NCBI GenBank assembly: GCA_905178155.1
Contig: CAJINV010000001.1
Location: 5,985,860 to 6,049,859 of the forward strand
Direction of reading: 5' to 3'
DNA length: 64,000 nucleotides
Source of the DNA: Amoebophrya sp. A120
Taxonomy: Eukaryota > Protista > Dinoflagellata
Shown: piece by piece, positions 3,836 to 63,300 of the stretch
Position numbering within the stretch: position 1 is the stretch's first letter
How the letters are laid out: every line of letters starts with the position of its first letter
Notes under the pieces: generated by a model
The model's database searches: none
The model's input: only the letters and a program-made list of their open reading frames with translations
What the model was told of the DNA's origin: nothing
Position numbers and translations under genes: made by a program

Positions 3836-6800
3836 ATGAGGGCTTTTTCTCCGCGTCCCTCCTGTGTAACAACTACACGATCAGTGCTAAAAACAACGGG
3901 TGCTTGTACAGCAACAAATCCTGCTGGATCGAGCAACAAGAGGCATTATTTCCACCCCTTCTTATCTGCTAGTGCCTGCGGCCTTGCGGTGGTCCTCTTT
4001 TTTCCCGACGTATCCCAGGCCGCTATGAACGTCAATTTGAATGGGGTGGAGGAGGAGGTCGGCCGCCTGCGCGAGCGGATTTTATCGTAAGGAAAAATCC
4101 CCCCTCCCCATATCGAAAACGAAACTTGTCATGCTGTATTTGAGTACACAAATGCAAATGCTAGAAGACCGAGAGCCGCAGTTGTGGCCTAGTTTGCAGG
4201 CAATTTGTGATGGTGTTTCCCACTTCCAGCTGCCTCCTGTCATGCTGCAGAAGCAAGGCTTTCCCACGCCACCCAGTAATACAGTCCGCCTCTTTTCCCG
4301 TCTAGCATGACAAAGCTAATTTGTGACCACAGACCTGCATCACAGACTTCCGTTTCGATATGGGGAGGGGGGATTTTTCTTCTTGATAGATTTTCGTCGA
4401 CCGCAAGTTTGTGGCGAAGCGGGGCAGCCGGACCGCGGTCCGTCGCGGCCTGCGGCGGCTGCCCAAGCCCGTGAAGGCCGCCTACGTATCCTGTGCAAAA
4501 GTATCGTACTCGTATTGCAATCATGCATTACAAATCCTGTACCTATGGTCAATCAGCATTACAAATTTTATTTCTCATGCTGAGAAAATTTGTAATGCAT
4601 TTATACGAGTACGATACTTTTGCAGTTCATACTATGCGGTGTCTGGTGATCATGACCTGTACAACAGCGACGTGGATGAAGACGCGGAGAACGGCGGCAT
4701 CGAGGAGGTTTCCGACCACGCGGTGCTGTCCAAGAGCGAGTCCAGCGACGGCAAGATCACGCCGTCGTCGCGCGACGGCGAGCGGACCCGCTCCCTGTTC
4801 GCGGACTTTTTCGGGGAACTGCTGTTCGGTCGCCGCCCGTCGCCGGACGGCGCCGCCTACTACGCCGGGCGTGGGCGCGGAGGTGGTGGGGGTACTAACA
4901 AGGGCCGCGGCAAGGGCGGGAATTATCGGGGCGGCGGGAGTAGTACAAGGCAAGCGGGGCTTTATTCTACTTCCATGGAGTCATCTTCATCGTTCGGCTT
5001 CGGGGCAGACCTAGAGGAGGAGTTGGTGGAGGAGCACTACCGCAAGCAGGACAAGGAGCAGTACCTGTCGTGGCAGGTGAACGCAGCGGAAAAAACGTGC
5101 TCGTCGCTGGACGGCCCACTGTGCAAGGACGACCGCGACGTGGGAGGTGTGGTGCCGGTGTCGGTGGTGGCCGCCGGGATGCGAGTGCGCAAGAAGCCCG
5201 CGGTGCTGGACCTGTACCGGGAGGAGGCCGTGGCGGCGGACCACCGCAACATCCTGGACCTGGAGTACGGCCGCTTCACCAAGGTCGTCGCCAATCTGAC
5301 CGACCTGGCCACGCCCGTGGAGGATGTCTCGAGCTTCGAGGAGGAAGACCGGCCGTACTGGGCGAGGGACTACGGAGACAGGCGCGGGAAAAAACGAGGA
5401 AAAAACGCTGTCAAGGTCGTGAAGAAGAAGCAAATCGACTTCACCTCCGACTCCGCCGGTCGCAACCTTCAGCACATGCAGGTGGCAGATCTGAGTCACG
5501 GTGCCACGCTCCGGCGTACTTCCCTGTCGTACGTGGATGTTGAATCAAGCCGGGTCCTCGCAGGAGATCATGTGGTGGTCACCACGGCGAGGACCCGCGG
5601 CATCAAAGGAGGCGACCGGCTCATTGCTGAGGGAGACGATGCGGCAGCTGGGAACTCAACATCTCTCGCGGGGTCCTTCATCGAAGGCGACGGCGCGAAG
5701 GGCAGAGGAGAAATGAGAGAAAACGAAGAAGATGTTGAACAGCAGCTCCAGAAGAACCACGAACTGCAACAGTATCATTCGTCTGCTTCAGAGTTTCATG
5801 AACCACGGCAATTTGCATCACGGACCTCGACAAATGAAGCCAGTAGCGCAAAGTCAGCGGCAGCGGCCGACCTGATCCGGGTTGCATTCCGAGGAGGCTG
5901 GCGGATTTTTTCAGACATCGACCGTGAGCCGGTCAACGACGTTCTTGCGGACCACGGCCGCGCAGCTCCTGAAAAGAGCATGCTCCTCGCCGGCGGCCAA
6001 TTTGGGTCAATTCGATTCTCCCGGCCCGTTTTGGTGCGGAAGTTGCTGGTTCGCGGCTCCAAAATGCACCAGCACGCCGTGTATCAAATGCAAAAATGTC
6101 TGGGTCTGGAAGATTCCGGGATTTGTGATGCATATTTTGTATGATCCGTGATGCATGTAATGCATGATCTAGCATCACAGATTTTTAGAGGACTTCCTGA
6201 TGCCTATTCCGCATGAGAAATGCCCTCTCCGCGTAACACAAACTGGGCTCCTGTTGCTGGTCACGCAATACAGATTTTTTTGGAATCCAAGGACAGCATG
6301 ACAAGTTGCAATCTTCCAGACCCAGACATTTTTGCAATGCATACCGTGATATCGGGCCGCGCCCGCTTCCGTGAGGGCCGGGAGGTTTTCCGCGCCCCAC
6401 TGTACAACGTATCAAATGTAAACATGTCTGGGTCTGGAAACTTGTGATGCTGGGTGGCGTCTCATGATGAGGCCACAAGTGCTGGCTCAGCATGACAAGT
6501 TTCTGAGCTTCTAGGTGTTGCCTATTCTGCATGACAAACTGCGTTTCTGCATCACGGAAAAATGGAGCTCTTGGGTAAAGTGCATGACAGATTTAAGAGT
6601 CATGCCAGACAAGCATGACAAACATGCATTCTTCCAGACCCAGACATTTTTACATTTGATACAATGTGACCAAGACCGATTTGCTGGCCAGCTACTCGGT
6701 GCCGGGGGGCTGCGGCTCCCATCTGCGCAGCACCTGCCGCGCCGACGCGGACGAACAGCAGTTCCACCGGGGGTTCCACCACGTTCCTGCTGTCGAGGGA

Positions 6801-9800
6801 AGCAGTGGCAGTGGGAGCGCAGAACCTTCTATGCATGAAATTCAGCTCGTCCCGGCGCCGCGCCAAGATCTTGTCGAGGACCACGATCCGGTTATTTGTA
6901 ATGGCAATGGGTCAACACCAGGAACATCAACCTCCACCTGCCAGAACACGGGGACGGGGCACGACGTGGCAGACGAAGAGGCCCACGACCACGCTTTTCT
7001 TGGAGAAAAACCAAAAAATATCGACAAAAATCTGCTGGCGCCGCTGAGCGGGCCCCTGCGCAACTCGCTGGCGAAGTTTGACAGCGGCATTGATTTCGCG
7101 CAGGACAGCCTGCTGAACGTGGGCCTGGTTGCGGTGGACGAGTTGAGTTTCACGGCCGCGCGGAACGTGGAGGTCGTCGCGCTCGAGGTGACGCCGGCTG
7201 CGTACGACGAGGAGCCGCGGGCGGCTTTCGTGCTGTCGCAGGAGGGCACGGTCGTGTTGGACCACGCGGTGAGCCCCAGCGCAGCGCCCTTCCTGATGCC
7301 CCTGAAGCGAGTGCTGGAGGAGGAGTTCGCGCTCACCGAGCCGGACATGCGCTTGCACTTCCTCCCACCCCAGCTGATGATGTTGGCGGAAATAAAGGAG
7401 GAAGAAGAGAGAAAGAAGCGAGCAGCAGACCATGACGCGTACGCGTTGCGAGGAACGACTTCTACATCTGCAGTTGTAGAGCAGGAGGAGTGGATCCGCG
7501 GACAGCTGGACCGGCACAGCCGGGAGGAGGAGGAGCGGCGGCCGGGATTCGGTTCGCAAAAGCCGAACTACCTCGAGATGTTGCAGAAGAAGTCCCTGCA
7601 CAAGCGGCTGCTGGAGCGGCCCTCGTTCTACAAGATGGCTTCCATCATGCGGGAGGACGCGTTCTTTGCGCCGAAGCGGCGGCAGATCGACAAGGACCTC
7701 CACCTGCTGGACTCGGCCTTCCGGGCGCTGGGCAAGCACCAGCGCCGCAACACCGCCTTCTGGCAGGCCGAGGATCGCCTGTTTAACGAGTGGACCCTGT
7801 TCGTGCAAAACTTCGACCGGAGTCTGTACTATTCATCCACCCAAACTGCCACCACCTCGCTCGCGAGCGCTCATGATGGTATTTCGGCAACACCAGTTCA
7901 AGTTCTTGGTCAAGAAGCAGTAGAGCCACAGCTGGCCGCACCCAGCGGAGGACCAGACTACCGCGAGGATGTTGACCAGCAGAAATTATTTTCGACTTCT
8001 GCAACTTCGACTTCTGATTCTGAAAGCATCTTCTTTGGATCGAATGTAGAGGCGGGGACGCAAAATTATGACGACGGTGTTCATCATCATGATGTGGCTC
8101 TATCAGCGTCCTCGACGTCCTATTTTTACGAAGATTCGATTACAAGAACACCAGCAATGTTGGGACCAGTGGAACCACATCATGTTCAAGAGGAACCGAA
8201 GAACCAGCACCAATTACCGAACGCCGACTCGTCGTCTTCAACAAATTTCTTGACGGACGACGGATTCCTGTTCGCAGATCATGATGCGGATCATTCGGAG
8301 GACGAAATCGAAGAAGACGATGAATTTCTGGAGCAAGCACGCCGGAGAGATCCAGACTTCCCGAAAAAAGAAGTCGAGGAGCAGGAGCAGGACAGTTCCG
8401 AGCATGATAGCTGGGGGGACAGCGTCGTGAAACGAGTCACTTCGAGTCTGACACGGATTTTGAAACCGAAAAAGTACGTGAAACGGCCGCGAAAAGTCAA
8501 GCGAGCGCGGTCGAAGATCAAATCTTCTCCCAGGAGGGACATCAGTTTCCACCAGAGCAGTCGTGATCGTGCCGGGATGAAGCAATCGCCGTCGAGTCGG
8601 CCACGAGGGCGGAGCTACGGGGGGGCGCAGAAGAAGCTGACAATTCCTCGAAGAAGCACAACTGGGAGAGCTTTGTCTAAAAATCATGCGAGTACTAGCG
8701 ACGAGGAGCTTGGCGACTCAGTGTCCGATCATTCCGGCACAGACGCTTCCGAAACGTCACGGGATTCCATCTCGGGATCATCCTCCCCCGAGGGATACTG
8801 TGAGGAAAAATCCTCCCTCCCCATACTGCAAACAGGTACGTTGCTCAATTTTTGATGCTGATTTGTGACAACAAATCCTGTCTCTCTTGCAAGAGGTCAA
8901 ATCCAAAGAATCCGCCGCCCTATGCAGGCGACCAAAACAACACCCCTACGCAGGCTGAGGCTTTGCCTGCAGTGCTGCCTCACTGCAAGACAGAGCTGAT
9001 TTGTGTATACCAATCCAGCCGGAGAAGTTCGTCCGTTTCAATATGGGGAGGGGGGATTTTTCACTTTGATAAGGGATCCGCCTCGGGAAGCAGCTCCTCC
9101 GACTTCGAGAGTGACGAAGATGCTGTGGGTATCCTGAGTAAAAACGTCCCCACCCCAGAGTTGTCATGCAAATCTGCATGCCAAAAATGTTCCGCATGCG
9201 GAGCCCCATGAGAAGCATTTTCTAGCCGTGTTTGGAATTTGTGATGCTATAATCAGCATGATATACTAGATCTGTGATGCTGCTGAACTACCTAAACAGG
9301 ATTACACTACGAGGACAAATTTGTCATGCCAATCGACCAAAGCCAGCTGATTTGTCTAGCAGATTTCCCATCTTGATGACTCTGGTGTGGGGACGTTTTT
9401 CCAAATGATAGTGGGCGGCGTGCTTCTGGATAACATGTTCATGAGCGAGGAGGAGACCGGGCGGATGATGCGCGGCGGCGCCGATGATTCGGGGGATGAT
9501 ATCGCACGAAAAAAGTGTTACACTTACACATTTGTTGTCAATTTAGCAACACAGATTTTCTCTGCATGGGAGGAAAAACTTGCAATGCAGGAGAGATCAT
9601 AAGGGAAAACACATGTGAAATGAGCTTGAAAGCATTTTGTGCGGGACAGAGCTTGTCTGCATTGTTGGGCCTGCAACACAATGTGTAACTGTGACACTTT
9701 TTCCTTTGCATAGACGATGGCCAAGGCGTGGCTATGATGGACCTCGCGGATCTCTTGGCGCAAGTTTTCGTGATGGCCCCCGAGGACGGCGGACAAGAAC

Positions 9801-13782: not shown

Positions 13783-16700
13783 ATGTCGGTGTTTCACCTG
13801 GGAATCGTTTGTGCATGCGTCCCGTGGTTTTACGGTCCGTATGGGCAGCAATCTTTGCAACTGGCGCAGTACTTGTACGATACCTACCAGTACCAAATCT
13901 CGTGGTTCGTGTACGAGTCGCAGCCGCTGCCGCAGGACAAGATGGACAAGTACCCCTGGGTCCGGTTTCATCGGATCGGTAAGGCACCTTGGATCTACAT
14001 TTCGGAGCTGAACGCCGAGTTCCGAAAAGCAAGTGCAGTTGCGTCTTCTAGTACTTCTATTTCGGCGAAGAAAAGCCCACCGGCTTCATCCGGCAAGGGC
14101 CGGAAGAACAAGAACGGGGAACTACAAGCTCGAACAACGTTGCCGCCAACTTGGGAAAAAAAGAAAATTGATGCTTTTGTCACGATGATGGACATGAACC
14201 GGATTTTTGTGGACGAGCCCTTCGAGCCGGTGGCCGTGTCCTTATGCATTGCAAATATGTCTGGGTCTGGAAGGTTGCAACTTGTCATGCTACATCTGGA
14301 TCGTGCAAAAATTTGTGTTGCATGATTACCAAAAGAGGTCCACTTTTGAGCAAGTTTAGAGGCCTTTTCTCATGCAGGAACGGCATGATAGAGATCTCAC
14401 AGAACCTGTCATGCTAGGCCGTGCATGCCAGACCGCGTGGGTCATGGAAAACCTGCATGACAAGCCTAGCAATCTTCTACAGAGCCACACATTTTTGCAT
14501 TTGATAGTCCTGGTTTCCCAACCACTGGGAGAAGCTGGACATCCACTCGCGCCACGCGCTGAGCCAGTTCGAGGTCGTATGTCCCTTGGCGCCGTCGGAC
14601 GCCGTTTCGATCCAGGCTATCAACTGTAAAAATGTCTGGGTCTGGAAGAATCCAACTTGTCATGCTGATTTTGAATTCTAAAAAAATATCAATATGTATT
14701 GCATGAGCAGCAAAGAGAGTCCAAGTTTTGCTGCACGGAAAGAGCATTTATCATGCGGTATAGGCATCAGGAAGCCCTCACAAAATCTGTGATGTTAGGG
14801 CATGCATCACAGACATCAGGAGTCATGCAAAATGTGCATTTTGGCTCAAGTGGAGTTTCGCAAGGAAAGTAGATAAACACCCGTACGTGGCGGGTCCTCT
14901 GTGCCCCTTTACAGTAGTACAAGCTAGAGCATCGGCGCCCCGAGCGTCCGTGCGAACACTAAAAACGCACATGGCCTCTCCTCCGACGACAGCCATCGAC
15001 TTACCGTCTTGCCCACGCCCAGAAGCACGGTAAAGGACCGCCACGCCGCCAATGACTGCCGGTGGATTGGGCAGGTGCCATGACAAGCATAGCATGGACC
15101 TCGGCATAAAGCACAACACGAGCGGAAAAAGGGCGCTTCGTTACTATCTTCGATGAGAAGGCTGGTCACCACACGCGGCCCAGCACAATCCCCAGCATGA
15201 GTGGAGTCGGACGCTTTCGGGAAGACATCTTCCGCGCAGGGTCCGCGCATCAGCAGATGCCGCGTGGCGCATCACGGGACGCGAGCGTGCGCTGGAGCCA
15301 CGGCCATGTGATGGCGATCCTCTGGGCGGAGCAAAGTAGTATAGAGCTATTTTTTATTGTGCTTTTTGGTTTCCTCCTCTTATGTCCTTGCATGTGAAGT
15401 AGCTTCGTTGTGTCTCCTTCTCTCTTTCATCATTTGGCCGGTCTGCTACTCTGTTGTTGTGTGCACGGGGGCGGAACATGTCCGTCCCCGTCGTTGCCTC
15501 AATTAAATCACAGGTGCCCGCTCTTCCTGTGGACCCTGGAAGATGATGTTGTCGCTCGACCAAGATTCGCCTGCGCTGTCACCGCATCTCTCCCACCCCC
15601 AGAATCCAGGGCAGACCTGATAGTCTGTGCGCGTAAAGTCCCTGCTGTGACTCTAGCGGCACCCCTGATAGAGCGTGTTTGGATTCTGGGCATTTGCGCA
15701 CAGGACTGCGGCCCAGCAACGCAGGCCAGGGCGGGACCATAGGAGCTTCGCGAGGCGGCGCGGGTACTCCTAAATGGCTTACGGTAGTGGAGTCGGCGGG
15801 CTGCTGGACGTATCTTGAGTTCCCCGCCCCAGATGCGTATGCGAGCGCGCGCGGCATTTCCAGCTCCCTCGTTCGAGGTAGTAGCCATGTCTGGGTTCCC
15901 CACGAGGACGAGATACGAGTGGAAGCCAGTGCCGACCAACATGAACGCGTGGCGACGGATCCCGCAAACGAGATGATGGGTGTTGCTCACCGCCTTCGGT
16001 GTTGGCGACGTGTCTGGATGCTGGATGTCCTATGTCCACCCCTCTCGTGGCCGTTCTGGTGCGCCTTCTCATGTGAGGTCGTTGACATGGCTTGGTGGGA
16101 AATTCCCGTTGCGCGAGGCTCTTGCCTTGCCCTCTGTCTTCGTCCCCAGTGGTGTTGCGACAGTAGAAGCGTCTGTTGTGGCCGTCGGAGCTTGCTCTGG
16201 GTCTTGCGGCTCCTCTTGTCTTCGGTGGAGTACCTGAGTGGCTTCTGCTGCTGCCTCCGTTGACTTTTGGCTGCTGCTTGACTGGCGGTTGGGAACACTT
16301 CAGGCGTCTTTGTGCTGTGCTTCGGCCGCGTGGTCCCCAGTTTTCCCCGGGTCCGGAACTCTGGGTTACCTTGGTCGAGTTGGTGTCACTGTCGGTTCAC
16401 CTATGTCCCTGCCTTTCTGTTCTTGCCACTGGGAACAGTCTGTGCGTTTCTTTCGTCAGCGGCTTCTTGGCGCTGAAGCTCGTTGACGATTGTTTCGGGA
16501 GGTTCCTTACGGCCCCTGAGGACATTGCCTCGCTGCCGACCAGGCCGAACTTAGAGGTCGGCTTCGGGAAGGCTACCCGGAGTTGAGTCTGTTTCGGCAG
16601 GTCTCTTGTGAATGCGAGGGCAGTGGTTGGCTGAGGTTGTTGGAGCGTTCCATAGTGTCGCTCCAGATCATTTCTGATCCTTCTCCAACTTCCTCATTTC

Positions 16701-19700
16701 CTGTGTGGTCTAATGCAGATTGCAGATCACAACACAGGGCCACCCTCGTATCTCACCTCCAGGGGGGGCGCGCGGACCTCGCTTGCCATTTCGTTTGGTC
16801 TCGCGAAAGTTCCAGCTCCCCCGAGCGGTAGTAGGGAATTTCCAAGAGTGCAAAATGTGCATGACAAACCTGGCGATCTTCCAGACCCAGACACTTTTAC
16901 ATTCGATCCAGGAGCAGCTCCCACACAAGGTGGTGCGGCACGTCCCGCACGTCATCCGCCATGTTGAACGAGACAAAGCGAGAGCACACGATAAAGAAGT
17001 AGGATCTCCACGAGAAGAAGATGGAGATCTAAAAAAGGCGGCCTTGCGCAAAAAGTTCGGGGTTCCGCCGCGGGCGTTCATAGTGCTAGTGGTGTTTTCC
17101 AACTACGATCGGCAGCACAACCGCAAGATGCCGGACATGAGTCTCGCCGTGTTTCGTGAACTGTACCGGGAGTCCGTGCGAAACGGCACCGCTGTAGAGG
17201 AGCGGCCCTTTTTGTACGTCCACGCGCTGAAGCATCCGGACCTGCAGAAGGAGCAGGGCAGCGAGGGGATGCCCATGCACCTCATTTGGGATTCGCTACA
17301 GCAGGACGGGGAAATCTTGCCAATCCGCGTCAACGAGGACGAAATGCCCTACGCCGACATTCTGCAGCTCCCGCAGATGGCGGACGTGTTTCTCCATCCC
17401 GCTGTATCACGTGGCGTGAAAACTAGAACCTTAGACCAGATGCTGTCATGGGCTATAATGAACGGATCTCTGTACCAAATATAAATAAACACCGTTGAAA
17501 TTATCATTATGCTAGCACATACAAAATCAATTGCGGAGGCATTTTCTTATGCTAAGAAATATTCAATTCCTCGTGCTTGTGACGGTGAGGATTACACCAG
17601 GTTCTTTTTCACTGCATACGAAAAGGCGGAGGGCTTTGGGCTACCCGTGCTGGAGGCGCAGTTGGGCGGCATTCCGGTCGTCACCACCGCGTTCGGGGCC
17701 ATGCGCGACTACGCGATGTATGGGCGCGCAGTACCTCCAAACGGGCCGCTTTTTATGGAGCTGGGTTTCGCAGCCATGCCGGATTTTCAAGGGACCCTCA
17801 GCGCGCTGCGGGACTTACACTGGAGCCTCACTTCCATTCGGAAGGCGTCGGGAGGAATTGCGGACAGCCAAGGAAGAACTGGGCGGAAGCAAGAAGAGCG
17901 GCAGGAAGAAGTGCTAGCTTGCAAAAGCAGGAGGCCCAGGGAAGGTGAAGGGCGGAGTGCGGAATTGGATATTGAAGACGGGCCTCGGAGTCTCGCTGCG
18001 CCACGCGCTGCATCAAGGCGGGAGGTCCAGGTGGATAGTTTAGGCCTCGTGGTCGATGGCGGTGGTGAAGGGAACAGAACTAGTGCGGAGAGCCACGACG
18101 CCCGCTCGATTGTTCAGCGGCTGCGATGTGAACTCGAAGAGCAAAGGGAGCGTGCGCAAGCATACATTGCCGCCAACATGTCCGCTGCCAGTGTGGGAGA
18201 CGCGTTCCACAGTTATGAATTGTAGAAAGGAAATCTTCCTCACGAGGAGACGATTCAAGTGCAGGAGGTTAGTGAATGCATGCAACTCGAAGTCAAGCGA
18301 CATTTCTTTTTGCTGCACGATGTCACTGCGTTCATCTTCTCCATTCTATATGAATCTTCTATCATCGGAGCGGTTTGTATAGCATTGAAAGCACGAAAGG
18401 CTTGTAGGCGGAAAAACGATGAATGACAACGATGAGGCTCCTCTCCTTTTTTCAAAAATATTTCACTACGTCGTGGTACGAAAGCAAAGTACAAGTACTC
18501 GTGAACATACTTGACTCAATTTCTGCAGTAGCAGGGGGAAGATTCAGTTTTTCTTTCACAGCGTCGTATTCGCGTCCGTCCGGAAGCCCGCCTACGTATC
18601 ACACAGAAAAAAGCTGGCAGGGCATATTTGTAATGCAAAAATAAATACGCAAAAAAATCTGTCATGGGTGGCCCCTTAGCATGCTGTTTCGGATATGCAA
18701 CACAGATCTTTTTGTGTATTTATTTTTGCATTACAAATGTGACCTGCCAGCTTTTTTCTGTGTGATACTACGAGACAACGTTTCGCGTGTTTTCGTACGC
18801 CGAAAAGGTCCCCAAGAACCCGCCGGAAACGTCGCGGAAGGTGAAGTTTTTTGCTAAGAGCATGAAATCTTTTTTCCCATTCCCAATGTGAAGGTGATAC
18901 TTGGTTGTACAACCTATATGCTGGTCCTTTCCGTCGCTGCGCCGGTTTTTACACCTTGCCTGCGGTGCTTGCCTGGGAAAGAAGACGTTTTTAGACAGAG
19001 TTGAGGCCAACGCATGGTAAGTCTTCAGCGTTGTAACCAAAGAGAACGAGACCTCAAAGAGGCTTGTTTTCGGGGAAGGTAAACTTGTAAATGCAGAAAA
19101 CAAAAGCTTTCTTGTTCATACCAATCTTCGTCTCGCCAAATTTCGTCATTGACCGTGACAAAGTAAATTACGTAATCAAGAATTACGTGATCAACAAGAC
19201 TGACCACAATGCGACCACCTCGGAGCTGGCGGTGACAAACAGGAGCACCACGCAAAGCAAAATTGATGGGGAAAATGCAACGCAGCTGGTCGCGACATCG
19301 CAAAACCTAACGTCTTCTAGTGCCGATGCCGAAGGGCCCTTATGCAATATCGCACCGACCCGGCCTTGCGCTAGCGCTTCGCCCTACCGTTGTCTTTCTG
19401 CTGCTTTCCATGATTTGGTTCATTTTTTTTTTTGCATTCTGTTTCTTTTCATTGTCTTTCTATGTCTTCTATCCGCGGTTGTTGTGCCGGGGAGAAGTGT
19501 GCGCATCGAACTGCTCTTGTAATGAAGACCAGCAGAAAAAAAGAAAAACGGATGCCACGTCCCACGTTGCTGTGGTGCTAGTTTTCGTAGTTGTCATGTA
19601 CTTACCTGATTTTTTGTATGAGTACAATCTGACGGAGCAGCAGCAGCCGGCGTCACAGCGGTGGTGGCGGCGCCAGGTGGTCCGTGTTTGCACTTGCATT

Positions 19701-20220
19701 CTGCACGCTGTGGGTGGGATCACATTACGAGCTATCGGGTGGGGAGATGCCACGGTTTTCTTTCGGGAAGGGTGTTGTGCAGAAGAAGGCCGGCTCTCGG
19801 GTGCTCGGGATCCTGGACGGCGGTGGAGCGTCGGGAGAGATGCCGACTCTGATCATGCGCCGCAAGGTGTGGAGAAAAGTCTGGAAGCCGGATGTTCCTG
19901 CGGTGCAGATCTTTCAAAAAATGCACGCAATTAGCCGGGATTTCCGCTACGCCGGCGTGGTCGGTGTACGGCGTCCCATATGCGAAGAAAAAAGTGTTAC
20001 AATTACGCATTGATGTTTTGCGGAACAAGCAAGACAGACCACAACCTTTGTCATGCCACAAATGCTTTCGGCTCTCGTTTCGTAACTGTTTTCCTTTGTG
20101 ATCGCTGCGTTGAAGATGTAGAGCAGCTTAAGGTAGTGGAACTGTAACACTTTTTTGTTGGGATATCCCACACAACAGTGGGGTCAGGGAGATTACGCCC
20201 TTCCGGGCGTGAAACGGTGA
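13783..20220 (+). CDS. GT-B fold glycosyltransferase (GT4 / Glycos_transf_1-like), multi-exon; 3' exons uncertain
   Basis: Spliced motif DVFLHPA^KAEGFGLPVLEAQLGGIPVVTT. Exons 13783-14241, 14511-14616, 16913-17403, 17623-18212, ~18565-18595 and 18772 onward are in frame. Structure between ~18840 and 19680 is unresolved, so the last part could be a separate gene. Confidence 0.75.
14242..14510 (+). mobile_element. Introner, TIR family 1
   Basis: TATGCATTGCAAATATGTCTGGGTCTGGAAG ... CACATTTTTGCATTTGATA. Direct repeat GTCCT/GTCCT. Join gives AVS^WFPNHW. Confidence 0.9.
14840..16848. mobile_element. 2009-bp non-autonomous insertion (copy B) with a 14-bp target-site duplication
   Basis: TGCAAAATGTGCAT occurs at 14826-14839 and 16849-16862, while the intact introner has the site once (TGCAAACTGTGCTTGACAAACC near 59005). 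No TIR and no recognisable ORF. Confidence 0.88.
16631..16826. ncRNA. Putative conserved structured RNA (copy B), family unknown
   Basis: Stems TGGAGCG 16641-16647/CGCTCCA 16659-16665, GATCA 16666-16670/TGATC 16675-16679, CCTGTG 16700-16705/CACAGG 16733-16738 and TCGC 16779-16782/GCGA 16803-16806. They covary with 1-191. Confidence 0.6.
17404..17622 (+). mobile_element. Decayed introner
   Basis: TAT...ATA ends and residual TIR GTGAAAACTAGAACCT/AGGTTCTTTTTCAC. Removal rebuilds the P-x-x-x-EGFG glycosyltransferase motif. Confidence 0.8.
18213..18564 (+). mobile_element. Decayed introner
   Basis: TATGAATTGTAGAAAGGAAATCTTCC/GGAAGATTCAGTTTTTCTTTCACA. In-frame join AFHS^VFASVRK. The 3' end could instead be the AG at 18561. 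Confidence 0.6.
18596..18771 (+). mobile_element. Young, almost fully palindromic introner (MITE-like)
   Basis: About 60-nt TIR starting TATCACACAGAAAAAAGCTGGCAGG/CCTGCCAGCTTTTTTCTGTGTGATA. Direct repeat CTACG/CTACG. Confidence 0.92.
19978..20169 (+). mobile_element. Introner, TIR family 3
   Basis: AAAAAAGTGTTACAATT/AACTGTAACACTTTTTT. Direct repeat TCCCA/TCCCA. Confidence 0.88.
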
Positions 20221-47345: not shown

Positions 47346-47370
47346 TCTGTATCTGTATCTGTATCTGTAT
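47346..47370. repeat. (TCTGTA)4 microsatellite
   Basis: Four perfect hexamer units. Confidence 0.8.
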
Positions 47371-47694: not shown

Positions 47695-50600
47695 ATGTCA
47701 AAAGGAAATCGTCGCCTGTGCGTGCCTCGGGCAGTTTCCCGGCGAATTGCGTCGCCCGCCTGGTTGCGGCTGTATGGTTTTTTTCTGTCTAGTTTGCAAT
47801 TGCATCATCACACGTGCGCTGTTGAGGCCTACACATTCAAGCGCGGCCACCAGGGCACCAGGTCCACCTTTCCTTCGAAACGTCGGCGGGCCCAAGTTTT
47901 GCAGCACAGTATCAATCGGGGTGAACAACATGGGGACCAGCAAACCGGAGCGCTTTTCAAAAAAGTGCGGAAGGTAGGAGAGCAAGAAAAAATGCAGCAG
48001 AACGGGGACGCGGGCACCGGAGATGAAGCCTTTGCGGAGATAACACGGGGACGACAGGATTATCACGCGCAGGAGGGAATAAAGAGCCAAAACCAAAAGA
48101 AAAAGCTTGTTGAACATGATCGGCACCAACAAAATGGCACAGCGTCGCAGCAAGTCGCCAGCCCCAGTGTTAAAGACTACTTTGACGTCGTGGAGAACAA
48201 GCTGTGGCAGTTGCGCCGCAAGGTACAGGAAAGCGCAAACGCCTGCAAAGCTGACCCAGACTACGAGTTCGAGCCCTCGGGCACACCGCCCGCAGATGCA
48301 CAGCTCTTCGGTAAGCTCGGGGAGTGCAATCCGACGGACGCTTGCTTCGCTATGGGAACGAAGAATGCGCGGGTCTCGTACCAGAAGGTCGCTGTCACCG
48401 ACCCCGAAGATTGTCTGTCGCGGGCGAGTATGCAAGGCAAGCGGGGCATCCATCGTGTCGTGTACAAGTTTGAAGTTTGATTTAATTACCATGTAGGTGT
48501 AAACACTACCAAGTCTCGCCAGCGGCAGCGGTATCTGTCAAGTAAGCTGTTGCATTTGCAACTACTTGTGATAGGAAGTACACGGGGTGAAGAATTGGCA
48601 GCACTGGAAAAATACGAGTTATGATACATTGCATGAACTTGAGAGTTTCACACTATGTTGCTTAGTTCTCTGTTGTATCCCAGCCTCGAATACTTGTTGC
48701 AATTTTTGCGATGCTTTTGCCCCGCTATACCTTTTGCTCGGTTGCTTCTTCACGAGTCAAAAAAGACTGCGGAGCAGGACGGCAGCACTAGCACCAAATT
48801 GTTGCGGACGCCAATCACGGAGGACGCGAAAGACGCCACAGGGTCCGATCTGGGCTTCGCAACGGTGGTACTGGAAAAACCGCTCGGCGGCGGTGCCCCC
48901 TTCGTGGCGCGGTGGCCGGTCAGCGACCAGCAGGTGAACACGAACAGCGCCGCGCCGTGGTACGTGAAGACTTTCACGAGCGGGGTTTCCAAGAGCCTGG
49001 TGATCGCCCTGGACCGGTCGGGGTCCATGGGGGAAACCGAATCGTGGGGGGATGCGCGCAAGGCTGCCGCAGCCGTGCTGAACTCCCTCGACGCCACGGA
49101 CCGGTTCTTCCTGATGACGTACCAGCACCCCGTGCAGTTTTCCGCGTTCGAGTTTGTGCACCCCACGGAGGCGCACTTAGAGGCCGCCAACCGCTGGCTG
49201 GAGCTGCAGGTCCCGATCGGGGGAGCGCACGACCGCCCCGACGCAGAGTTTGGAATCGGCACCGCGGTCGCGATCGGCACGCAGGGGGTGGTGCCGAAGG
49301 AGTGGCGCGCGAAGATCCGGGAGACCGTGAAGGACACTGACAACGACGACCGCGAGCTCCCACCGGAGCCGGCGGAGGACGACATCGGGTCAACGACGTC
49401 GTGTCCGCGCGCGGCCCTGAACCGGTGCGAGAAAACAGTCGTGCTGGTGATGTCCGACGAGAACTTTCCGCCAAGCCACCTTGACGACCCCAAATACGGC
49501 AGCTGGCTGCGGGAGGGGCTCCTGGGCGCCACCGCGAAGCTCGCCGAGGGAGAGGACCCCGCGGTGCATTTGAACGTGTACCGGTTCCAGGCCGCGCTCC
49601 GGGACGAAGTGCCCACCGTGGCCGGGCCGTACCAGAGCATCGTCGCCCACTACGACGGCCAGGCGGAGGTGGTCACGGGACACGCGGGCGACCTGGCGGA
49701 ACGCATGGCCCGCTACTGGCGCAAACTGCTAGCCGGCACGGGCGCCGGCGCGGCGCGGGTGGTTTGGACCGCGCACGAGGACGCGGAAGGCCGCCACCTC
49801 ACCGCGTGCGTGCCGTTGGCAAGTGACTACTTCGCTGCTCCCGCCGACCCGACGATGTCCTCGGCGGGGGGACCGCTTCCCCCCGGATTGGTGTGCGTCG
49901 ATCCCCGGGCCGTGCTGTCTCTCAGCATGGTGCAGCTGCAGTGCCAGGACGGGTTCGCGGAGGAGCTTTCGAAACGGCTGACCGGCGGCGGGGCGTGCGA
50001 CGTGCGGGAGCAAAAGGAGCGTCGCGAGCGGTACTGCAAAAATCTGTCGGCGGCGCTGGCGGAGGAGAAAAGCTATCTGACGCAGGTGTACGATTTTCTG
50101 ATCAGCATGAAGGATCTCGAGTGGTCCGCGAAAACGTTGTCCGAGGCCATGGCGAGTGCGCTCACGCTGGTACCGTGCTACGGCTGCGACGTGGACACTG
50201 AGACGACCGCGGAGATGGACGAGCAACTGCAGCAGCACGCGTCGCAGCCGGGAGAAGTCTTTTACTACACACGCTCCTGCCCGGAGGCGAGCACGGGGCA
50301 GTGCTCGGAGCGGCTGGAAGTGGAATGGCGGAAATCATATCCGAGCCCCGACCTGTACAACGAGAGAGTGAACGGCACTTCCGGAGATCTTCATGGGGCG
50401 ATGTCGGCTGAACACGACGTCAACCACATCCTACCCCAGGTAACGACCCTTCCGGGAAATCAGACGTGCGAAAAATCGCGGCCACCCGTGCCGCCACTGG
50501 TGCCTAATGTGGAGGTGAACGACGAGCTGGAAAAAATCGACGTGAACTGGGACGACACGTACAAAGAGGAGCCAGTGGAGAAGGATTCTCCTGTTCCTTC

Positions 50601-54384: not shown

Positions 54385-57300
54385 ATGATGTCTTTATCTA
54401 GCCTCATTTGTTTGGTAGCTGTCGCTGTTCACCTGGGCGGTGGTTCTCTATGGGTCTTCGATTTTTTTGTTGATCAGAGCCGGACGAGGACGAGGTTTGC
54501 GAGTGTTGCGGCCTACACGTTTCACGTTGCAAACACGAGAAATATGCGATCGTCCGAGCCGCGGCTCGGGAAGGTTGGCCATAAGAAGGGTGACAACCTG
54601 CGTCATGATGTTTCCGGGCCAGTCTCCATTTTTCAAAAAGGCAAGCGGCGAAAGCAGGCTGAGCGACAGCAGCGGAAGACGACTCTGAAACCGGCACCGC
54701 AGGGGCGCCGAACAGAAAAACGTCTCCGTGCTCAAGATGTGGAGGAGGTGCTTGCCCGTCGTCTGGACTCCGCAGCCGCGGAAGGTATCAGACTTGACAA
54801 CTTGGCCCGCTGCTGCCTCCTTCGGGGTATCAACAGGCAATTATGTTGCATGAGAGCAGGAAATTTCAATTTTCAATTTATTTAGACCACTATGTTGTCT
54901 TGCAAAGCAAATTGAACGAAACGCAAGACGGGGCCTACGCCTACGTGGCTCGTTTCTAGTCGGCTTGCATGAAAGATCGTTGTGCAATAGATAAGCAAAG
55001 CGACCCACACACGTTGCTTCCATTGCTATCTATATCAATTTTGGTTCGAAGTGATTCATTGGGGGGGATGAGGGCCGGGATTTGTCAAACAGTATAGAGT
55101 ACGAGGAAGGACTGGACATGGACAAACGCAGGTCCCGAGAGAGCTTTCTTGAGCAAAAACAAGGGCTAGACGATCTTGACGAAGCGCAGGCAACAGCGAT
55201 GCCAGTAATGGCAACGAAAGACACAAGGAACACGAAGCCGCAATCCGGTTCAGCGTTCATCGCACAGGAAATACAGCGGGGTCGGACTGGGACGACCGTA
55301 AATGAGCGGATGAAGGCCACAGAGACAGAAGGATCAGGAAAAACCGGCACGAGGAGGACCCGCGCGGCCAGTGGTGCCACCCCTGTGGCGGATTTCCTTG
55401 CACAGGTCGAGAGTAATCTGAAGGGTTTACGGGACAAAATCGTCGAGGAAGTCGCAACACAGTGCGCGGAGGATTCAAGTGAGGACTTTGAATTTGATGG
55501 TATAGCATCGAGTTTGGAAAATCTGGGTGAATGTGGGAGTGACCAATCCTGTTTCGAGATCAAGAACGGTGTTCAAGTAAGCTACAGTCATGTGGGCGTG
55601 CAGAATGCAGCAGCCAGTGGGGCAAACACGAAAAAGTACTGTCTGCAGCGGGGAATTGCGGACCTTTTTCTGCGGGAGTCGCGAAGCACAGCGAGTGGAA
55701 AGCTGCTGAGGAGCCCCATCACAAATGCGAACAAGGACGAGCCAAGCGCTGATTTGGGGTTTGCATCCGTCGTGCTGGAGCCGATTGCGGCCGGTTCGGC
55801 AAACGACCAGGTGATGGTCCGTTGGCCGCTCAGCAGCCACGCGCCTGACATGACCAGCGCTCCGTGGTACGTGCGCACGCTGACCCGCGGGGTTACGAAA
55901 AACGTGTTGATTGCGCTGGATCGGTCCGGATCCATGGACAGCACAGACTCCTGGGGGCACGCGGAAACTGCTGCCAGGCGCGTGCTGGAATCCCTGGGAG
56001 TCACGGATCGCTTTCTAGTGATGACCTACCAACATCCCGTGCAATTTTCTGCGTTTGAGTTTGTGCACGCGACCCAGGAGCATGTCGACGCCGCAAAACA
56101 ATGGCTGGCTGGCATTGTACCAGGCCTCGGGGCTGGTACTGTTGCGGCGAGCGATGATGTTAATGGCGAGGCGCACTCCCGGCCCGACGCGGAATATGGG
56201 ATAGGAGCGGCTATCGTAGTGGGGACGTTGGGTGTGGTCCCGGATTCGTGGCAACAGAAAATCAAGAACAGTGTTGCGGTCGGCCAAGCGGAACGGCAGG
56301 CGGCTTCCCTTGATGTGCCCCCCCACAGGATCGACCTGCCGCCATTTCCGGTGCCACTGACAGACCAGGTGGGTGACTGTCGGCGTGCTGTGGCTACAAG
56401 TTGCGAGGAGACTCTAGTCTTGCTCATGACGGACGAAAACTTTTCCTCCACACAATACAACCATAAATTTGGCAAGTGGTTAAGCCATCTCCTTGGTGCG
56501 ACTACGACAGTGGATCTGGACAGCGGTGCTGACACAACACCAGATTCCCCCGCCGTCCGGATGAACATATACCGTTTCGATACATCACAGTTCGGCACGC
56601 CCTCTGTGGACGGTCCGTTCCAAGCTATTCAGTGCAAAAAAGATATTTGTATCTAAGATCGAAATAGTAATAGTAGGAGGTAAGTCTAAGTGCAAGAACA
56701 ACGCTATGGAAAAAAAAGGCTTCGCTTTCGCTAGCATGACGAGGGCCCGATGTCCGGTATGTATTTAAGTACATAGTTCGAATGCAGCGAAGATGTTGAC
56801 GGATAAGATCGGATCAGCGAGGCCATTTGCGTTTTATTTCCCTGGTCATTATTTGGAAGGACGCTGCTGCTGCGAGACCTAGTTCGGCAGGCAACAAACA
56901 AGGTAGCTAAAGCGAAAATTGGTATTTCGATCTAGATTCAGAGACGTGCGCATTTGATAAGAGACATTGTCGAGCAGTTCCATGGTGAGGCAGAGGTTGT
57001 ACAAAGACAAGGAGATTTACTCGGGGAGCGCATGGCGACCTACTGGCGAAACCTGATTTCGCAAGGCGAAGATAGCGGGGTTGTGTGGACTTCGCACGAG
57101 GATGAAGTCGAAGGCTACCACCTCACAGCTTGCGCACAACTGAATGTTTTCAATGGAGCGTTACGTGGCGTGGTATGTGTGGATCCTCGAGCAGCGCTTT
57201 CGCTAAGCCTCCAACAGCTGCACTGCATGGACGATTTTGCGGATGCAATGAGTGAAAAATTGTCTAGCACCGCCTGCAGTATTGCAACGCAGGCCACGAC

Positions 57301-60300
57301 GCGGCAGACGTACTGCGACAATTTGACGAGCTACGTTGCCCCTGTTGCTCAGACGGAGCTTCGGGTCCAGGATTTTGTTGCTTGGACCTACCTTCGTTCT
57401 CAGGGCGAGACGAACTTGGTGAACCTCCTCAAAGACGCTGTCTCCGTGATTCCCTGTGGGCCTGGTGATCTGGGGCAGTGCTCTGGGTATCAAGCGGGTG
57501 CAGGTAATATACAAGGCTACGGGTATTCTCTGCAAATTATACGTCCGGGTTAGGGAAGTAAGTACATATTTTTGTCATGCCACCTTCCGAGGATAGACAT
57601 AGAAATACAAATAGATGAACAAAATAGACTTTCCTGTACTTGGCGTGTTACGAGGCGTCTGATGAAAGTGGTGACGTAGTTCTAGTTAGTTACACGAAAG
57701 TAGGAAAAGACGAAACTTGGACAAGTCAGTGGAGTGCCGCTACCCTACGTGCACTCCGCTTGATAAAAAGCCAACATCAGTACTATTCACAGTCTTGTGG
57801 CTAGTTGTTCCCCTTTGCATCGTAAACACGCGATGAAGCAGCGCACTGCTGCTGCTTGTGCATCATCTAGCTACGCAGATTCTCATCAACTCCTCCAGAT
57901 TGCATGTGAAATAGGCAAAGCTCAAGCTGCGCAAATTTCCCTGACCCTCACGGATTGCCCCCTCATACCGCGCAGCGCACCTTTGTGTATCCATCGAAGG
58001 ACCTGTTTTCCACTACGCAAATAGAAACGCGCGCACGCCCTTGTCCGCCACAGCTGCAGTAGGCACAGACAGGAACTCTCTTTGCCTGGCATTATTTCTT
58101 GAAAAATGTTCATGTTGGGCATGGTAATGTTACAACTGCCTCTTATTTCAACTTTTCCGCGCCATCACTCAATCATCATGCACCTCCACCAGTGACATTG
58201 CAATGATAATTCTAATTGTAGGCAGCAGCGCAAGTGGAACACTGAGGATAATTTATTGCCGCCTGCCGTGCACGGGAAGTGGAAGTCAAATGAGCTAAGT
58301 AGAAGATGTTGAAAACGAAAAGCAACTGTTGCTGCTGCAGCGACTAAGTTCGTTGCGCGCTTGAAAGCATTGCTGGTCGGCGAGCCAAGCGGGCGCCTTC
58401 GATTATGGCACGACTTTATTCATGCTTGATATTTATGAGTATCACATCAGGCAAAGGCGTGCAGTTGCCACATCTGGACAGGTGTCCGCACAGCTCCCCC
58501 CTAGTCGGGTGCCAGTCTGCGAAGCGCAGCTATTGTGCAGCTGTCGACCGAGGGTTTGAGTAAGAGGCTCAGGTGGGCCACCGAATTCCAGATCGAAAAA
58601 GTGAAAATCCGAATGGCAAAACATAGGCAGAAAAGTGTTTCCTTCCAACTCAAACTGTCTGCATCAGCAATGTTCCGACTGTTGTGGCTTGCAGCGTAGG
58701 AAGTGGCGTGCGCTTTTCCCCACGATATTCGCCGGCGGAGAAAACTACGACCACCATCAGAACACAGGGCCTTCCGGCGTGTGTCCTCCGCCTGTATGAA
58801 TTGCAAAAGTTGTGTCTGGGTCTGGAAGATTGCAACTTGTGATGCTACATTTGGATACTACAAAAATCTGTATTGCGTGAACAGTAAAGGAGGTCCAGTT
58901 TTTGCCACGGCGAGAGGGTATTTCTCATGCGGTATTAGGCATCAGGAAGCCCTCACAGAATGAATCTGTGATGCTAGGGCATGCATCACAGACGTCAAGA
59001 CTCATGCAAACTGTGCTTGACAAACCTTGCATCCTTCCAGACCCAGACATTTTTGCAATCCATAGCCTGTCTGCCTGTGCAACAACGGAGATGTCAACGA
59101 GACACCTTCATCCTGTACCAAGAATGGGCACCAGAACTGCCAGTCTTGCCACTCGGGATACGAACCGCGAAGTGGCTGGCCGTCGGCGCAAGAAACGGGC
59201 TGTCATCCTGTTTGTGGAGGCATGCAAGAATGCCCAGCCCCGGATTCCACCGGCGCGTACCACATTCGGGATGATTCGAAGCCAGCCACGGCGTGGTGCG
59301 ATATGCAGGACGACGTTGCGCTGGTTCTCGGCGGCATGAGCCAGCCGGATAGCACGGCACAAAGCGCCTGTCAAACTACCTGCTGCATAAAAGGATGCAA
59401 GATACCGGCTCAGCAGTAAGACTGGCTTTTTTTTTACTTCGATTATGAATTCATTTTCATTCATTCATGCAGGTGTAGAAGTAGTATTCTGACTCGCAAG
59501 TGCAAGAAGACTCAGAACCCCTATAAAATACAACATACGACGCGTACATTTGCAGCGCATGCGACCCCGGATTTCACCCGACCGATAACGGTACGGCGTG
59601 CGCAGAAAACGTCTGTGCGTGCGAAAACGGCAGCCCTTTGAAGGGACCGCCGATCTGCGCGGTAAACGGGGTGACGCCGGGATGCGCTACTTGCGACGAC
59701 CCGACGTTTGAGCTCATTGACAACACCTGCGTCGCACCGGGCACGACAGCAACACCAAACACTACTGGTGGTTTTTGCATCCAACCGGGCGGTGGATCAG
59801 GCAGTGTCGATGTTGCCTACAATCTCTCTGCGGTTGTGGACTGGGTCGGGTTTCTGTCTTCCCCTGCTATGCAGCCCCCGATGACCGCCGACGCGGGAGA
59901 AATACTTGGGAACGCCTCGTGCGCAGTAGGTTTTGCGGGAGAGCCTACGTTTTGGTGCGCGAACGCCAGTGAGGAGGTGCTGATGACGGGTTGCGCGGCC
60001 GCGCACGTGGTCGTGACGGAGGAGCCTACTGATAATGTAACGCTCACAACCGCACCGCAGGTCGAGCCGGAGCCGAACGCGACCGACACCGAGGGCGGCA
60101 CCCTGGCGGCCCCCCTAATCGGCGGGGGTGCTGGACTTCTCCTCCTGCTCCTCCTGCTGCTTCTGTTTCTGATGAGTTGCGGCGCGGTGGCGGCGGACGA
60201 CGAGGAGGAGCTCGAGGAGGAGGAAGAGGAAGACGCCCGGTGGGATTACAACCCGGAAGTCGAGGCGATCGGGCTCGACTTTGGCGACTGCGAGACGGCT

Positions 60301-63300
60301 TTGCTGGAAACCGGGCTGAGCGCCGCGTACGCCGCGAAATTGGCGCGGCTTCTGGCGGGTCCGGAAAGGAAGGACAAGAAAGTGGAGGCGCCGACCGAAG
60401 ACTCGGACCTCACCGCGATGCAGCACCTCGGCTTCGAATTCGATACCGACGACGGGGTGGAGGTCGGGTTCGTGCGGGGCATGATGCGGCGCGCCGTCGT
60501 CAGGCACAAGGCCGACCCCGAGCACTACACCTTGGGGACGGCGTTGTTGGCCTGCGGGTACGAGTTTGGCGCGGCGGAAACCGCCCTGGTTTACGGCGGG
60601 CTGACGCGGGCGGGTGCCCGCAAGGTTGCGAAACACGCGGCGGGGCCGACCCTAGACACGGAGGTGCTGGACGTCCGCGCGCTGGGCGACGCCGATACAG
60701 AAGCCCTGCGAAGATACTGGGGCTTCGAAGGAGCCGACACAGAAGCCCTACGAAGATACTACGGCTTCGAAGCCGCGAGCAAAAGTACTAAAGGTGGCAG
60801 TGACACTAACGTTTTGACCGCGGGCACGCTGCGCCAGGCGCTGCGGGCCAAAGTCGCCCGCGACGATACACACGAAGACGAGCGACACGTTTCGACCTTC
60901 GCATTCGACGTCGGTCTTGTGGAGACGGCCTTCATCAGTGCCGGCCTCACGCCGGCGTTCGCGAAGAAGATGGCGAGGCAGGTGACGGACCGGGAGACCC
61001 ACGACGATGACGAGCTAACCGACCCGGAGGACGAAAAGGACGCGGAAATCATGAAACAGCTCGGGCTGGAGTTTGCGGGGCCGGAGCGCGTCGGACGCAT
61101 GCGTGGATTTCTGGAGAAGGTGGCCGCACAACAGAACCCGAAGAACGCGTCCTCCTCCAAGAAGCTGCACACCGAGGACCAGATCCGGCAGCGCTTGGAA
61201 GACGCCGGGTTCTCCGAGAAGGCGGTTCGGTTCCTCGCGCCCGCCTTGGTACGGAACGCCAAAGCCGGGAAGTCGGACGATTTGCAGCTGTCTGCGGAGA
61301 CGCGGCAGCAGTTCGAGGAGGTCGCGGAGGGGCACGACCTCGACCTGTTCGGGGGTATCGAGCGCACCAACGCGTGGGCGCCGTTCGCGTACACGAAGGG
61401 CGCCCAACGCGCGTCGCGGTCAAGCAGCCAGTCCGATCTCGCCGTGGCGATCGACCTGCGGGCTCTGATCGCGGGGCAGTTTGGGTCCACCGAACGAACG
61501 AGCGCGGGACCCGGTGGAATTATCCAACACGAAAAAGATGAAGCGTTACAAGACACTCAGCACGATTAATTGACATGTGGTCGGTTTTGCTGTATGATTT
61601 TCATCGTTGACATTTATGCTCAGAGGGTGTAGTTCGCACTTTTGGAATAAATCTGAGTGAATAGGACCACTGGGGCTGAACTAGGCCTGAAGCCAAAGCC
61701 ATTTTTCCGCTGACGACGGTGGAACAAAGACTCTTCATTGGGTACTATCAGTATGAGAGTGAGTACAGGTACACAGTGAAGTGTAGTTCGTCGTGCGGGC
61801 TGGTTTTGTAAACACTTTTTTTTCCTTTTCCATAGCCCTGCTTTTCACCGCGATGCCGGCTCCGAAGCGTTTTCACCGAAAGAAGAAGCCGCCGCCGAGG
61901 GCGCCGGGTTCGGGCGATGGAGGGACCCCCGCCCCGGAAAGTCGAATTGGGACGCTTCCTGCGAAAAAGAAGAGGAAAAAGTCGGCACCGCCCCCGAGGC
62001 TGTGTCCGTGCTTGTTTCCCTCGGTGGCGGAGGATGCAGCACCCGAATCTTGTTTGTCATCCTCTCCGCCAACTAGCGCCGCGAGATCTACTTCCGTGGC
62101 CGCAGCCGCAACCAAAACAGACGGAGCCTCGCCTAACTCCCAAGGCGGGGATGCTGGGGATGCTTCTGCGGCAGCGGGTGCGAAGAATGGTGAAGAGGAG
62201 CAGCACGACGAGAATGAGCACGCCGTTGTTACCGTAAAACGGAACGCCACCGGCCTGGAGTCGTCCGGAGCGTCCTCGGCAGAGAGCGTAAGTTCTGGGG
62301 ACACCGACGACGGGCACATCGGGGGGCCGTCCCCGAAGAAAAAGAAGCAGAAACAAAAGCTGAAGGCGAAGCCAGGCAAATCCAAATCGAAGTCCACCAA
62401 GGTGGGAAGCAGCGAGACGAGCGGCTTTCTCAACCTTGGTAGCGCAGGGACGTCGGATCCCTCGAAGGTGTCAGCGGTGACCGACTCCGCCCAGAGCTCC
62501 GGCTCTTCATTGGATATCCCACTTGAAATTTATTTCACTTTCGTCTCCGAATAGATTTTGGTGTACAAAATGAGTCAATGCTCGTCAGAGTGAAGAAGTC
62601 AGGACGTGGGGCTTTGCATCTTTGACCTGTGGAGGTCCTACTCGTTTTGCATGATATCAACTTGAGTTGTTCATTGTTGAGATACATAGCTGGAAGTCAG
62701 GGTGATTTTTTGAAGTGGGATGTCGGAAGACTCGTCCGGCAGTGGTGACAACGAGACAGGCAAAGGAGAGAAACGCCACGGGAAAAAGCACCCAAAGAAA
62801 AAGAAACCGACTGGAGCAGCCCCGGTCGCCGCGCTTCCCCCCGGGCTGCTTGGCGAAGCGGAGGCCGCGCTGCAGGCGATCGGCTTCACTCGGCGGCAGG
62901 CTCATGCGCTCGGGCAGCAGATTGCTGACACCGCCGAGGGCGAGTTGAAATCCGAGGCAATGCGCCTGAACGACGAAGAACGGTTATCAAATGAAACGAC
63001 GTAAATCCTCGAAAGAGGACGAAACCGCGTGCAGCACGCGATGCGACCAGCTTGTTTCTACTTTAGTTTTTGCATTTCGTTTTCGACAACGTCTCCTTCT
63101 CCTTCTCGCCTAGCCAACACTAAATGCTAAAGTGCCTATGATTGATTCTGATGCTGTGATGTTGAAAAAGCGGGGTGAACATCAAATCGCTGGCTACAAG
63201 TCGAAGCCTGGCGTGCTGCAGCGCAGTATTTTTTCCAACGCATACCGGCAAATCGCGGAAAAGGGACTCGGCGGGGCCACAATCCTCGATTTGCAAGATC

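Follow-up and report, generated by a model that had tools for sequence, protein, structure and literature searches.

The window analyzed here is a 64,000-nt stretch of contig CAJINV010000001.1 from the dinoflagellate Amoebophrya sp. A120, and its genes are interrupted by 30 complete non-canonical introns, with one more, partial, at the window start. Protein searches with these genes returned five proteins, four of them named Amoebophrya sp. A120, and the genes gave weak glycosyltransferase-1 and weak VWA matches, all under the Pfam cut-offs. The introns consist of elements described previously in the same organism: A120 introners carry an inverted repeat that begins with TAT, 7 nt and AAA, have short direct repeats, and occur in thousands of copies (Farhat et al. 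2021, PMC7789003). A sequence-only reading of the window had proposed that 25 introns, 5 of them with a one-base change in a terminal triplet, obey one rule, N-TAT...ATA-NNNN, in which the cuts fall 1 nt before TAT and 4 nt after ATA (register 1/4; other registers are named by their 5' offset). We find that the rule extends to 30/30 complete elements, 8 of them with an altered triplet, and contig junctions support cutting of the A120 introner-derived introns at this one fixed register, with GT-AG not needed.

Non-canonical introns of the window

All of the introns lie on the forward strand, and the median length of the complete elements is 284 nt. TAT and ATA are both intact in 22/30; one triplet base is altered in the other 8, giving 5' TAC at 8795 and 58013, 5' TAA at 18854, and 3' ATC at 14617, ATG at 62514, ATT at 19340, and ACA at 33191 and 18213. 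The 30 introns show 23 distinct combinations of 5' and 3' terminal dinucleotides, with GT-AG in 0/30, and the first base of the 3' exon is G in 9, A in 9, T in 7 and C in 5 (pyrimidine in 12/30). If retained, 24/25 tested elements break the open reading frame (ORF). The elements have the features of A120 introners, namely A120 host proteins, terminal inverted repeats (TIRs), a border repeat, a repeated family, and removal from transcripts.

The partial intron (1..358) is the 3' part of an introner truncated by the window start, in which ATA at 352-354 is followed by 4 nt; its positions 1-232 match another locus (L069) at 97%. Like the element at 14617, with which it has a 99-nt piece in common, it contains extra internal sequence. 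Next come introns at 4082..4392 (TT..TT, 5/5 match in the target-site duplication, TSD), where the rule-spliced gene contains public protein P0005 exactly, 4486..4635 (GT..AT, TSD 4/5; supported by ORF and annotation), 6081..6347 (GT..GT, TSD 5/5; its family is shared with the element at 58794 in opposite orientation), 6409..6665 (GT..AT, TSD 4/5), 8795..9075 (AT..GG, TSD 5/5), 9129..9414 (GT..GG, TSD 5/5) and 9499..9716 (AT..CG, TSD 4/5).

Splicing by the rule at 14242..14510 (TT..CC, TSD 5/5) reproduces public protein P0003, which also bears on 17404..17622 (old, GT..AA, TSD 2/5), 18213..18564 (old, TT..GT), 18596..18771 (GT..AC, near-perfect hairpin, TSD 5/5), 18854..19124 (old, CT..AA), 19340..19704 (old, TT..GC) and 19978..20169 (AT..CC, TSD 5/5). 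Those at 18213, 18854 and 19340 were recognized only through this protein. P0003 is obtained by register 1 only at 18854 and permits registers 1 or 2 at 17404, an element with a unique placement in DNA and no RNA contig cover. A GT..AG pair at 18212-18561, lying 1 and 3 bases off the rule sites of 18213, was considered and rejected; it gives another frame, and the annotated protein obeys the rule. The intron at 14617..16912 (CT..GG) measures 2,296 nt and holds about 2 kb of additional internal sequence. For 16039-16825 within it, the X1 and X2 contigs described below contain a second copy with a 96% match; no contig joint spans the intron in the comparison, which began at 15900.

Splice register

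The contig comparison covered 15900-35800 and 44001-64000 of the window. Contig sets X1 to X3 come from one sample, with RNA status guessed, and contain 0.68 of the words of 28.0-37.9 kb; set X4 consists of DNA contigs, possibly the assembly's own source, and contains 1.00 of them. None of the runs recorded as RNA contains the stretch, and two raw RNA runs (X7 and X8) placed 0 reads on 15900-35800 and carry no weight on the register. Over 15900-35800, X1 and X2 gave seven joints, six non-canonical and one GT-AG. Over 44001-64000, the joints listed for X1 and X3 include seven non-canonical ones that coincide with element borders and a single GT-AG joint, and skipping of 62514 and 62984, inferred from contig piece coordinates, adds two further junctions. 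When each joint is slid through every placement equivalent to it, 1/4 proves compatible with 15/15 contig junctions. In the X1/X2 comparison no joint fell at any of the six complete elements between 17.4 and 20.2 kb, and the remaining 15/30 elements are supported by ORF and annotation. Contigs report the dominant form only, so minor registers may exist.

At five junctions, all in old introns, 1/4 is the sole possible register: 29683..29939 (GT..TA, TSD 0/5; joint 29682->29940, with no slide), 30972..31279 (GT..GC), 31819..32397 (AT..TT), 48428..48733 (GT..TT; intact in the X4 DNA contigs) and 54785..55100 (GT..GT). From intron triplet frequencies, the chance of finding both triplets at the rule positions in all five is about 1e-18. 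Contig joints at 33191..33594 (GT..AT), 34207..34450 (CT..GC), 57523..57971 (GT..GC), 58013..58731 (CT..CG) and 61520..61838 (TT..CC) admit registers 1 or 0, the joint at 34906..35285 (CT..GC; an internal G-TAT at 35120 is unused) admits 2 or 1, and that at 56625..56963 (CT..AG) admits 3, 2 or 1. The young intron at 58794..59068 (GT..CT), from a high-copy family, has seven sliding placements. Short-sided joints within 58832-59035 (X4, one also in X1/X3; sides of 20-26 nt) were attributed to further members of that family and excluded. Elements with a single triplet mismatch (58013 and 33191) are still skipped in contigs. The last two introns are 62514..62726 (AT..GG), where P0001 is reproduced, and 62984..63248 (TT..GG), where registers 4 to 1 fit the contig and register 0/5 produces a stop, with an ORF of 1980 versus 2064 amino acids, as the sequence-only reading had noted.

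That reading had also pointed to introns with mismatched direct repeats as the places to read the exact cut. The coordinates of that reading that were checked are correct (30972-31279, 34207-34450, 48428-48733 and 17404-17622, and the starts at 4082, 31819, 54785, 56625, 61520 and 62984), and among these introns 30972, 31819, 48428 and 54785 admit 1/4 only, while 34207, 56625, 61520 and 62984 are compatible with it. The contig junctions support its claim that cutting occurs at set distances from TAT and ATA, independently of both the direct repeat and GT-AG. The paralogue-conserved sequences that it had described as rebuilt by splicing are seen at EDW^LND, DAM^QPG and RA^IARL, and HPA^KAEG at 17404 agrees with the public protein. 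Its argument from frame restoration held in part: the frame is restored, but an intact 5-nt repeat gives identical mRNA in all six registers, so restoration is no test of register in such copies. The gene at 3.7-9.7 kb, for example, has 0 amino acid differences across the six registers.

When the introns are removed by the rule, the predicted products are identical to four public A120 proteins (P0001, 2027/2027; P0002, 2134/2134; P0003, 765/765; P0005, 1440/1440). Because the public annotation was probably built on RNA from the same study, this match is a consistency check and not independent proof. Removal of the elements at the DNA level, which the sequence-only reading had named as a refutation, is made unlikely by the X4 contigs, which retain the elements and run unbroken over 47378-58841 and 59039-64000 at an even depth of about 43x.

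Constrained bases

To the 30 window elements we added elements from elsewhere, of which 203/280 were oriented by a codon model with a TSD of at least 4/5; the other 77 were ambiguous or non-coding and were dropped. Orientation controls from the window were right in 9/10 cases and in 6/6 of those passing the filter, and the splicing of the 203 outside elements is inferred. U at +2 and a purine, A, at +3 occur in 233/233 elements, including 30/30 in the window. Over both sets, changes in the triplets number 0 at +2, 0 at +3, 8 at +4, 8 at -5, 4 at -6 and 3 at -7. Within the +2/-5 and +3/-6 pairs, there are therefore 0 changes on the 5' side versus 12 on the 3' side (binomial P=0.0005). A at -7 is present in 30/30 window elements.

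The five repeat positions follow the codon background (P 0.17-0.89), and GT-AG termini arise by the rule in 4/203 outside elements. The terminal dinucleotides had been called arbitrary in the sequence-only reading, and this is right for +1, -2 and -1; since the second base is T in 30/30, the word must be restricted to those three positions. When the 1/4 rule is applied to the 203 oriented elements, intron phases are unevenly represented (93 in phase 0, 48 in phase 1 and 62 in phase 2; P=0.0004), and the skew is present although target base composition matches the codon background. It may be a frame-calling bias.

Origin of the elements and role of end pairing

A search with a 20-nt pattern found at least 151 matching stretches in metagenome_contigs (15/64 parts), from which 148 loci were taken; the old window copies had no match among these 148. 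Element ends were anchored on inner motifs without demanding the triplet, and TAT was found at 544/584 ends. An exact 5-nt repeat abuts the triplets in 178/222 paired elements, 9 of the 222 being window copies, and repeats of 6-8 nt occur in 0/222. Homologous pairs lie in the same orientation 1707 times versus 1699 in opposite orientation. The TIR, TAT followed by 7 nt and an A run, is present, and together with the TSD and a lack of coding capacity it matches a non-autonomous TIR DNA transposon, or MITE (a miniature transposable element with inverted repeats). The elements are thus the known A120 introners, small TAT...ATA TIR transposons with a 5-bp target duplication. The 2.3-kb copy at 14617 was considered as an autonomous element and rejected, as its seven ORFs had no match to a transposase family. 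Despite a perfect inner repeat, the 7 nt that separate TAT from the A run are often unlike at the two ends (e.g., 4087-4092 and 9134-9139), and each end has C or G at +5 regardless of the other.

Seventeen of the 30 window elements are old copies with a TSD of 3/5 or less. Their repeat identity has fallen to 32/85 (38%), while TAT keeps 49/51 bases and ATA 48/51; because the triplets were kept as the repeat decayed, both are under selection. Complementary triplets and A/T runs are likewise retained at both ends of old copies.

The sequence-only reading held that cuts are measured from the paired TAT and ATA ends. In 13/14 old elements, cognate arms pair better than non-cognate arms (P=0.0009). 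Among 205-2144 candidates per intron, with weights set once, the true end pair ranks first in 13/15 cases by motif plus duplex energy, in 6/15 by motif alone (median rank 2) and in 1/15 by pairing energy alone. Pairing probably helps partner choice. As a ruler for the cut sites it is only partly supported: +2 and +3 are unchanged against 12 changes in their partners, predicted folding pairs the triplets in 11/26 introns, and no RNA-strand selection is seen, with G.U showing no excess over A.C (73 versus 62 in young inner arms; 39 versus 29 in old). The +5/-8 pair is at chance level (0.59 versus 0.59), with C.C or G.G in 70/203, and 62984 has no end stem in the predicted fold. A tRNA-type bulge-helix-bulge, judged by the usual geometry of that motif, was rejected on inspection, since the sequence of the upstream exon is repeated, and not complemented, in the 4 nt that follow ATA.

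Other genes and features

The region 22349-28265 is an intron-free paralogue of three VWA-like genes, along which an X2 contig is colinear over 24228-24727. Its long ORFs, 22349-24754 and 24348-28265, overlap in different frames, pointing to a frameshifted gene or an assembly error. A single-exon ORF of 1688 amino acids at 40139-45202 has a weak match to an endonuclease-reverse transcriptase domain (PF14529, E=0.017) and is possibly a non-LTR (long terminal repeat) retroelement; contig depth is about 220 over 44001-47332. A short repeat links 47275-47332 with 39425, and a 26-nt loose end of the X1/X3 contigs before 47303 matches near 39425. A small multi-exon gene at 11700-12640, apparently with GT-AG introns, may encode transcription elongation factor Elf1, which it resembles.

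How the introns may be removed

We favor, at a probability of about one half, a rewired U2-type spliceosome that would take N-U-A for the 5' splice site and place the 3' cut by counting from ATA. An element would insert into a target abcde to give abcde-TAT...ATA-abcde, the repeat being what is observed, and splicing at 1/4 takes out e, the element and abcd, leaving abcd|e. One split copy of the repeat (1+4) leaves with the element, and by this geometry the mRNA is restored wherever the element lies and whichever way it points. The TIRs would fold the intron and bring its ends together in place of bridging by U1 and U2AF, the weak three-pair tip would open, and U+2/A+3 (with +4/+5) would be read like a normal 5' site that has lost the G. 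With the 3' cut 7 nt downstream of it, the first A of ATA would be the best candidate for the branch nucleotide; short, fixed distances from branch to 3' site occur in some protists and yeasts. Selection would maintain TAT, ATA and the A/T runs well past the decay of the repeat.

Judged by its bases, N-U-A-U-S corresponds to a spliceosomal 5' site from which the G is missing, and its N-U-A part to the core of that site. A-7 is kept in 200/203 outside elements with variable flanks, and the contigs that skip TAT/ATA introns skip GT-AG introns as well. All nine top motifs of A120 are NT-NN, with T at +2 (Farhat Table S4, PMC7789003). The nine top motifs of A25 are TT-NN and its repeats begin TTA (PMC7789003), so A25 also appears to place U at +2 and A at +3, from a different repeat. 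A near-complete spliceosome has been reported for A120.

Several points weigh against spliceosomal removal. A-7 is changed in three outside elements (GTA twice and CTA; their splicing inferred), so that its invariance, true in the window, had to be given up, and one element dropped for ambiguous orientation (L018) could have a 5' TGT. The 203 elements show no preference for G+1 (66 versus 64.5 expected), A-2 or G-1, and all 16 combinations of first and last base are present among them, while the spliceosome normally requires an interaction between these bases. Because both orientations occur, an internal branch site could lie only within the repeat. U1 small nuclear RNA was not found in A120 in the published report. 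The freedom at +1, -2 and -1 favors a Euglena-like mechanism, and Euglena introns, the closest look-alike, exit as circles without lariats. The claim that U1/U2AF dinucleotides do not set the sites fits the data, but it does not follow that the spliceosome is not involved.

It is possible, though we hold it only tentatively, that a spliceosome-independent endonuclease and RNA ligase recognize the end hairpin, read U-A by the 5' cut, and cut with the 1/4 stagger as in Euglena. The three unconstrained positions, the orientation independence of the elements, the failure to find U1, the better pairing of cognate ends with its effect on site ranking, and the Euglena code N3-CDG...CH'G-N5-6 with its required stem all speak for such enzymes. 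The invariant bases are nevertheless those of a spliceosomal 5' site, with which the A25 data agree, and without a G.U excess the end pairing may be a TIR relic; 62984 lacks an end stem. In its broadest form this proposal would give A120 a second nuclear mRNA splicing machine, convergent with that of Euglena and removing any TAT...ATA hairpin transposon at the 1/4 stagger, an idea that we hold just as tentatively.

Recognition of two sites without RNA pairing is improbable. Here proteins would read TAT-S-N6-AAA and TTT-N6-S-ATA at fixed distances, with any catalyst, and chance-level +5/-8 pairing, the infrequent folding of the triplets, the null G.U test and the performance of the motif alone speak for it; against this, adding pairing lifts first ranks from 6 to 13 of 15, and complementary triplets and A/T runs are kept at both ends of old copies. 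Least credible of all are reverse-transcription template-switch artefacts at hairpins or loss of the elements from DNA: such artefacts usually arise at hairpins that lie between direct repeats, X1 to X3 are contigs only, from one sample of guessed RNA status, and X4 may be the assembly's source, but five junctions lack microhomology, retention would disrupt the ORF for 24/25 elements tested, GT-AG introns are skipped too, and the X4 DNA contigs are unbroken across the elements.

Comparison with known systems

Although the elements were already published, the fixed register appears to be new and replaces the view of variable cut sites. Non-canonical introns make up more than 60% of the A120 total, and prior work called their borders "variable" and left their splicing open. 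Farhat et al. (PMC7789003, Fig. 3 legend) give variable sites for the same organism and elements, whereas the present data give a 5-bp repeat and a register fixed at 1/4. A statement of a fixed register was not found in the accessible literature text, figures of PMC7789003 excluded. In Dataset S2 of PMC12130899, the 21/58 A120 rows seen are automated and list mixed mechanisms with TSDs of 2-5 nt; one row (fam160) has a 1/4 offset and a 5-nt TSD, and no general register rule appears in those rows. Among the 203 young elements, 0 have a unique placement and 98 can be slid to an AG end, yet the rule itself puts an AG end on only 18. Such sliding, which the 5-bp duplication allows, is likely why Farhat et al. 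called the sites variable and why Dataset S2 mixes mechanisms. A single register amounts to a splice code that corrects annotation and explains the invasion of any exon in either orientation.

As in introners that take both of their splice sites from the TSD (PMC9860276, PMC12130899), one TSD copy leaves with the element and the mRNA is unaltered, but those introners need GT/AG-like target bases. Hemistasiid diplonemid introns (PMC12621601) also have paired ends, with the mechanism left open there (RNase III-like, tRNA-like or spliceosomal routes were proposed); unlike A120 elements they have G/C-rich repeats, and a fixed triplet register was not found in the accessible text. In Fritillaria borealis, a precedent for the spliceosomal reading, the U2 spliceosome removes non-GT/AG introns (PMC13326754), which are of transposon origin (review PMC11282704). 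Like A120, this animal has a majority of non-canonical introns, there with a conserved U2 spliceosome (PMC13326754), but it prefers the termini AG-AC and AG-AT and keeps U1, whereas +1, -2 and -1 in A120 are free target DNA. If removal in A120 is spliceosomal, its spliceosome would be indifferent to the first base and the last two bases of the intron.

Closest are the nonconventional introns of Euglena, with the code 5'-N3CDG-/-CH'GN5-6|R (Nomura et al. 2025, PMC12501133). Both systems have complementary triplets at fixed, staggered cut distances, free terminal bases, an end stem, slidable junctions that hide the code, and GT-AG introns alongside, and a MITE-like origin has been proposed for the Euglena introns (PMC12501133). 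They differ in triplets (TAT/ATA versus CAG/CTG), in spacers (1 and 4 versus 3 and 5-6) and in lineage, which is unrelated; A120 also has no need for a purine at the first exon base and tolerates single triplet changes. Should an endonuclease and ligase prove responsible, a second lineage, far from euglenozoans, would have a staggered-triplet splicing machine, and such a second machine would have licensed tens of thousands of harmless exon insertions.

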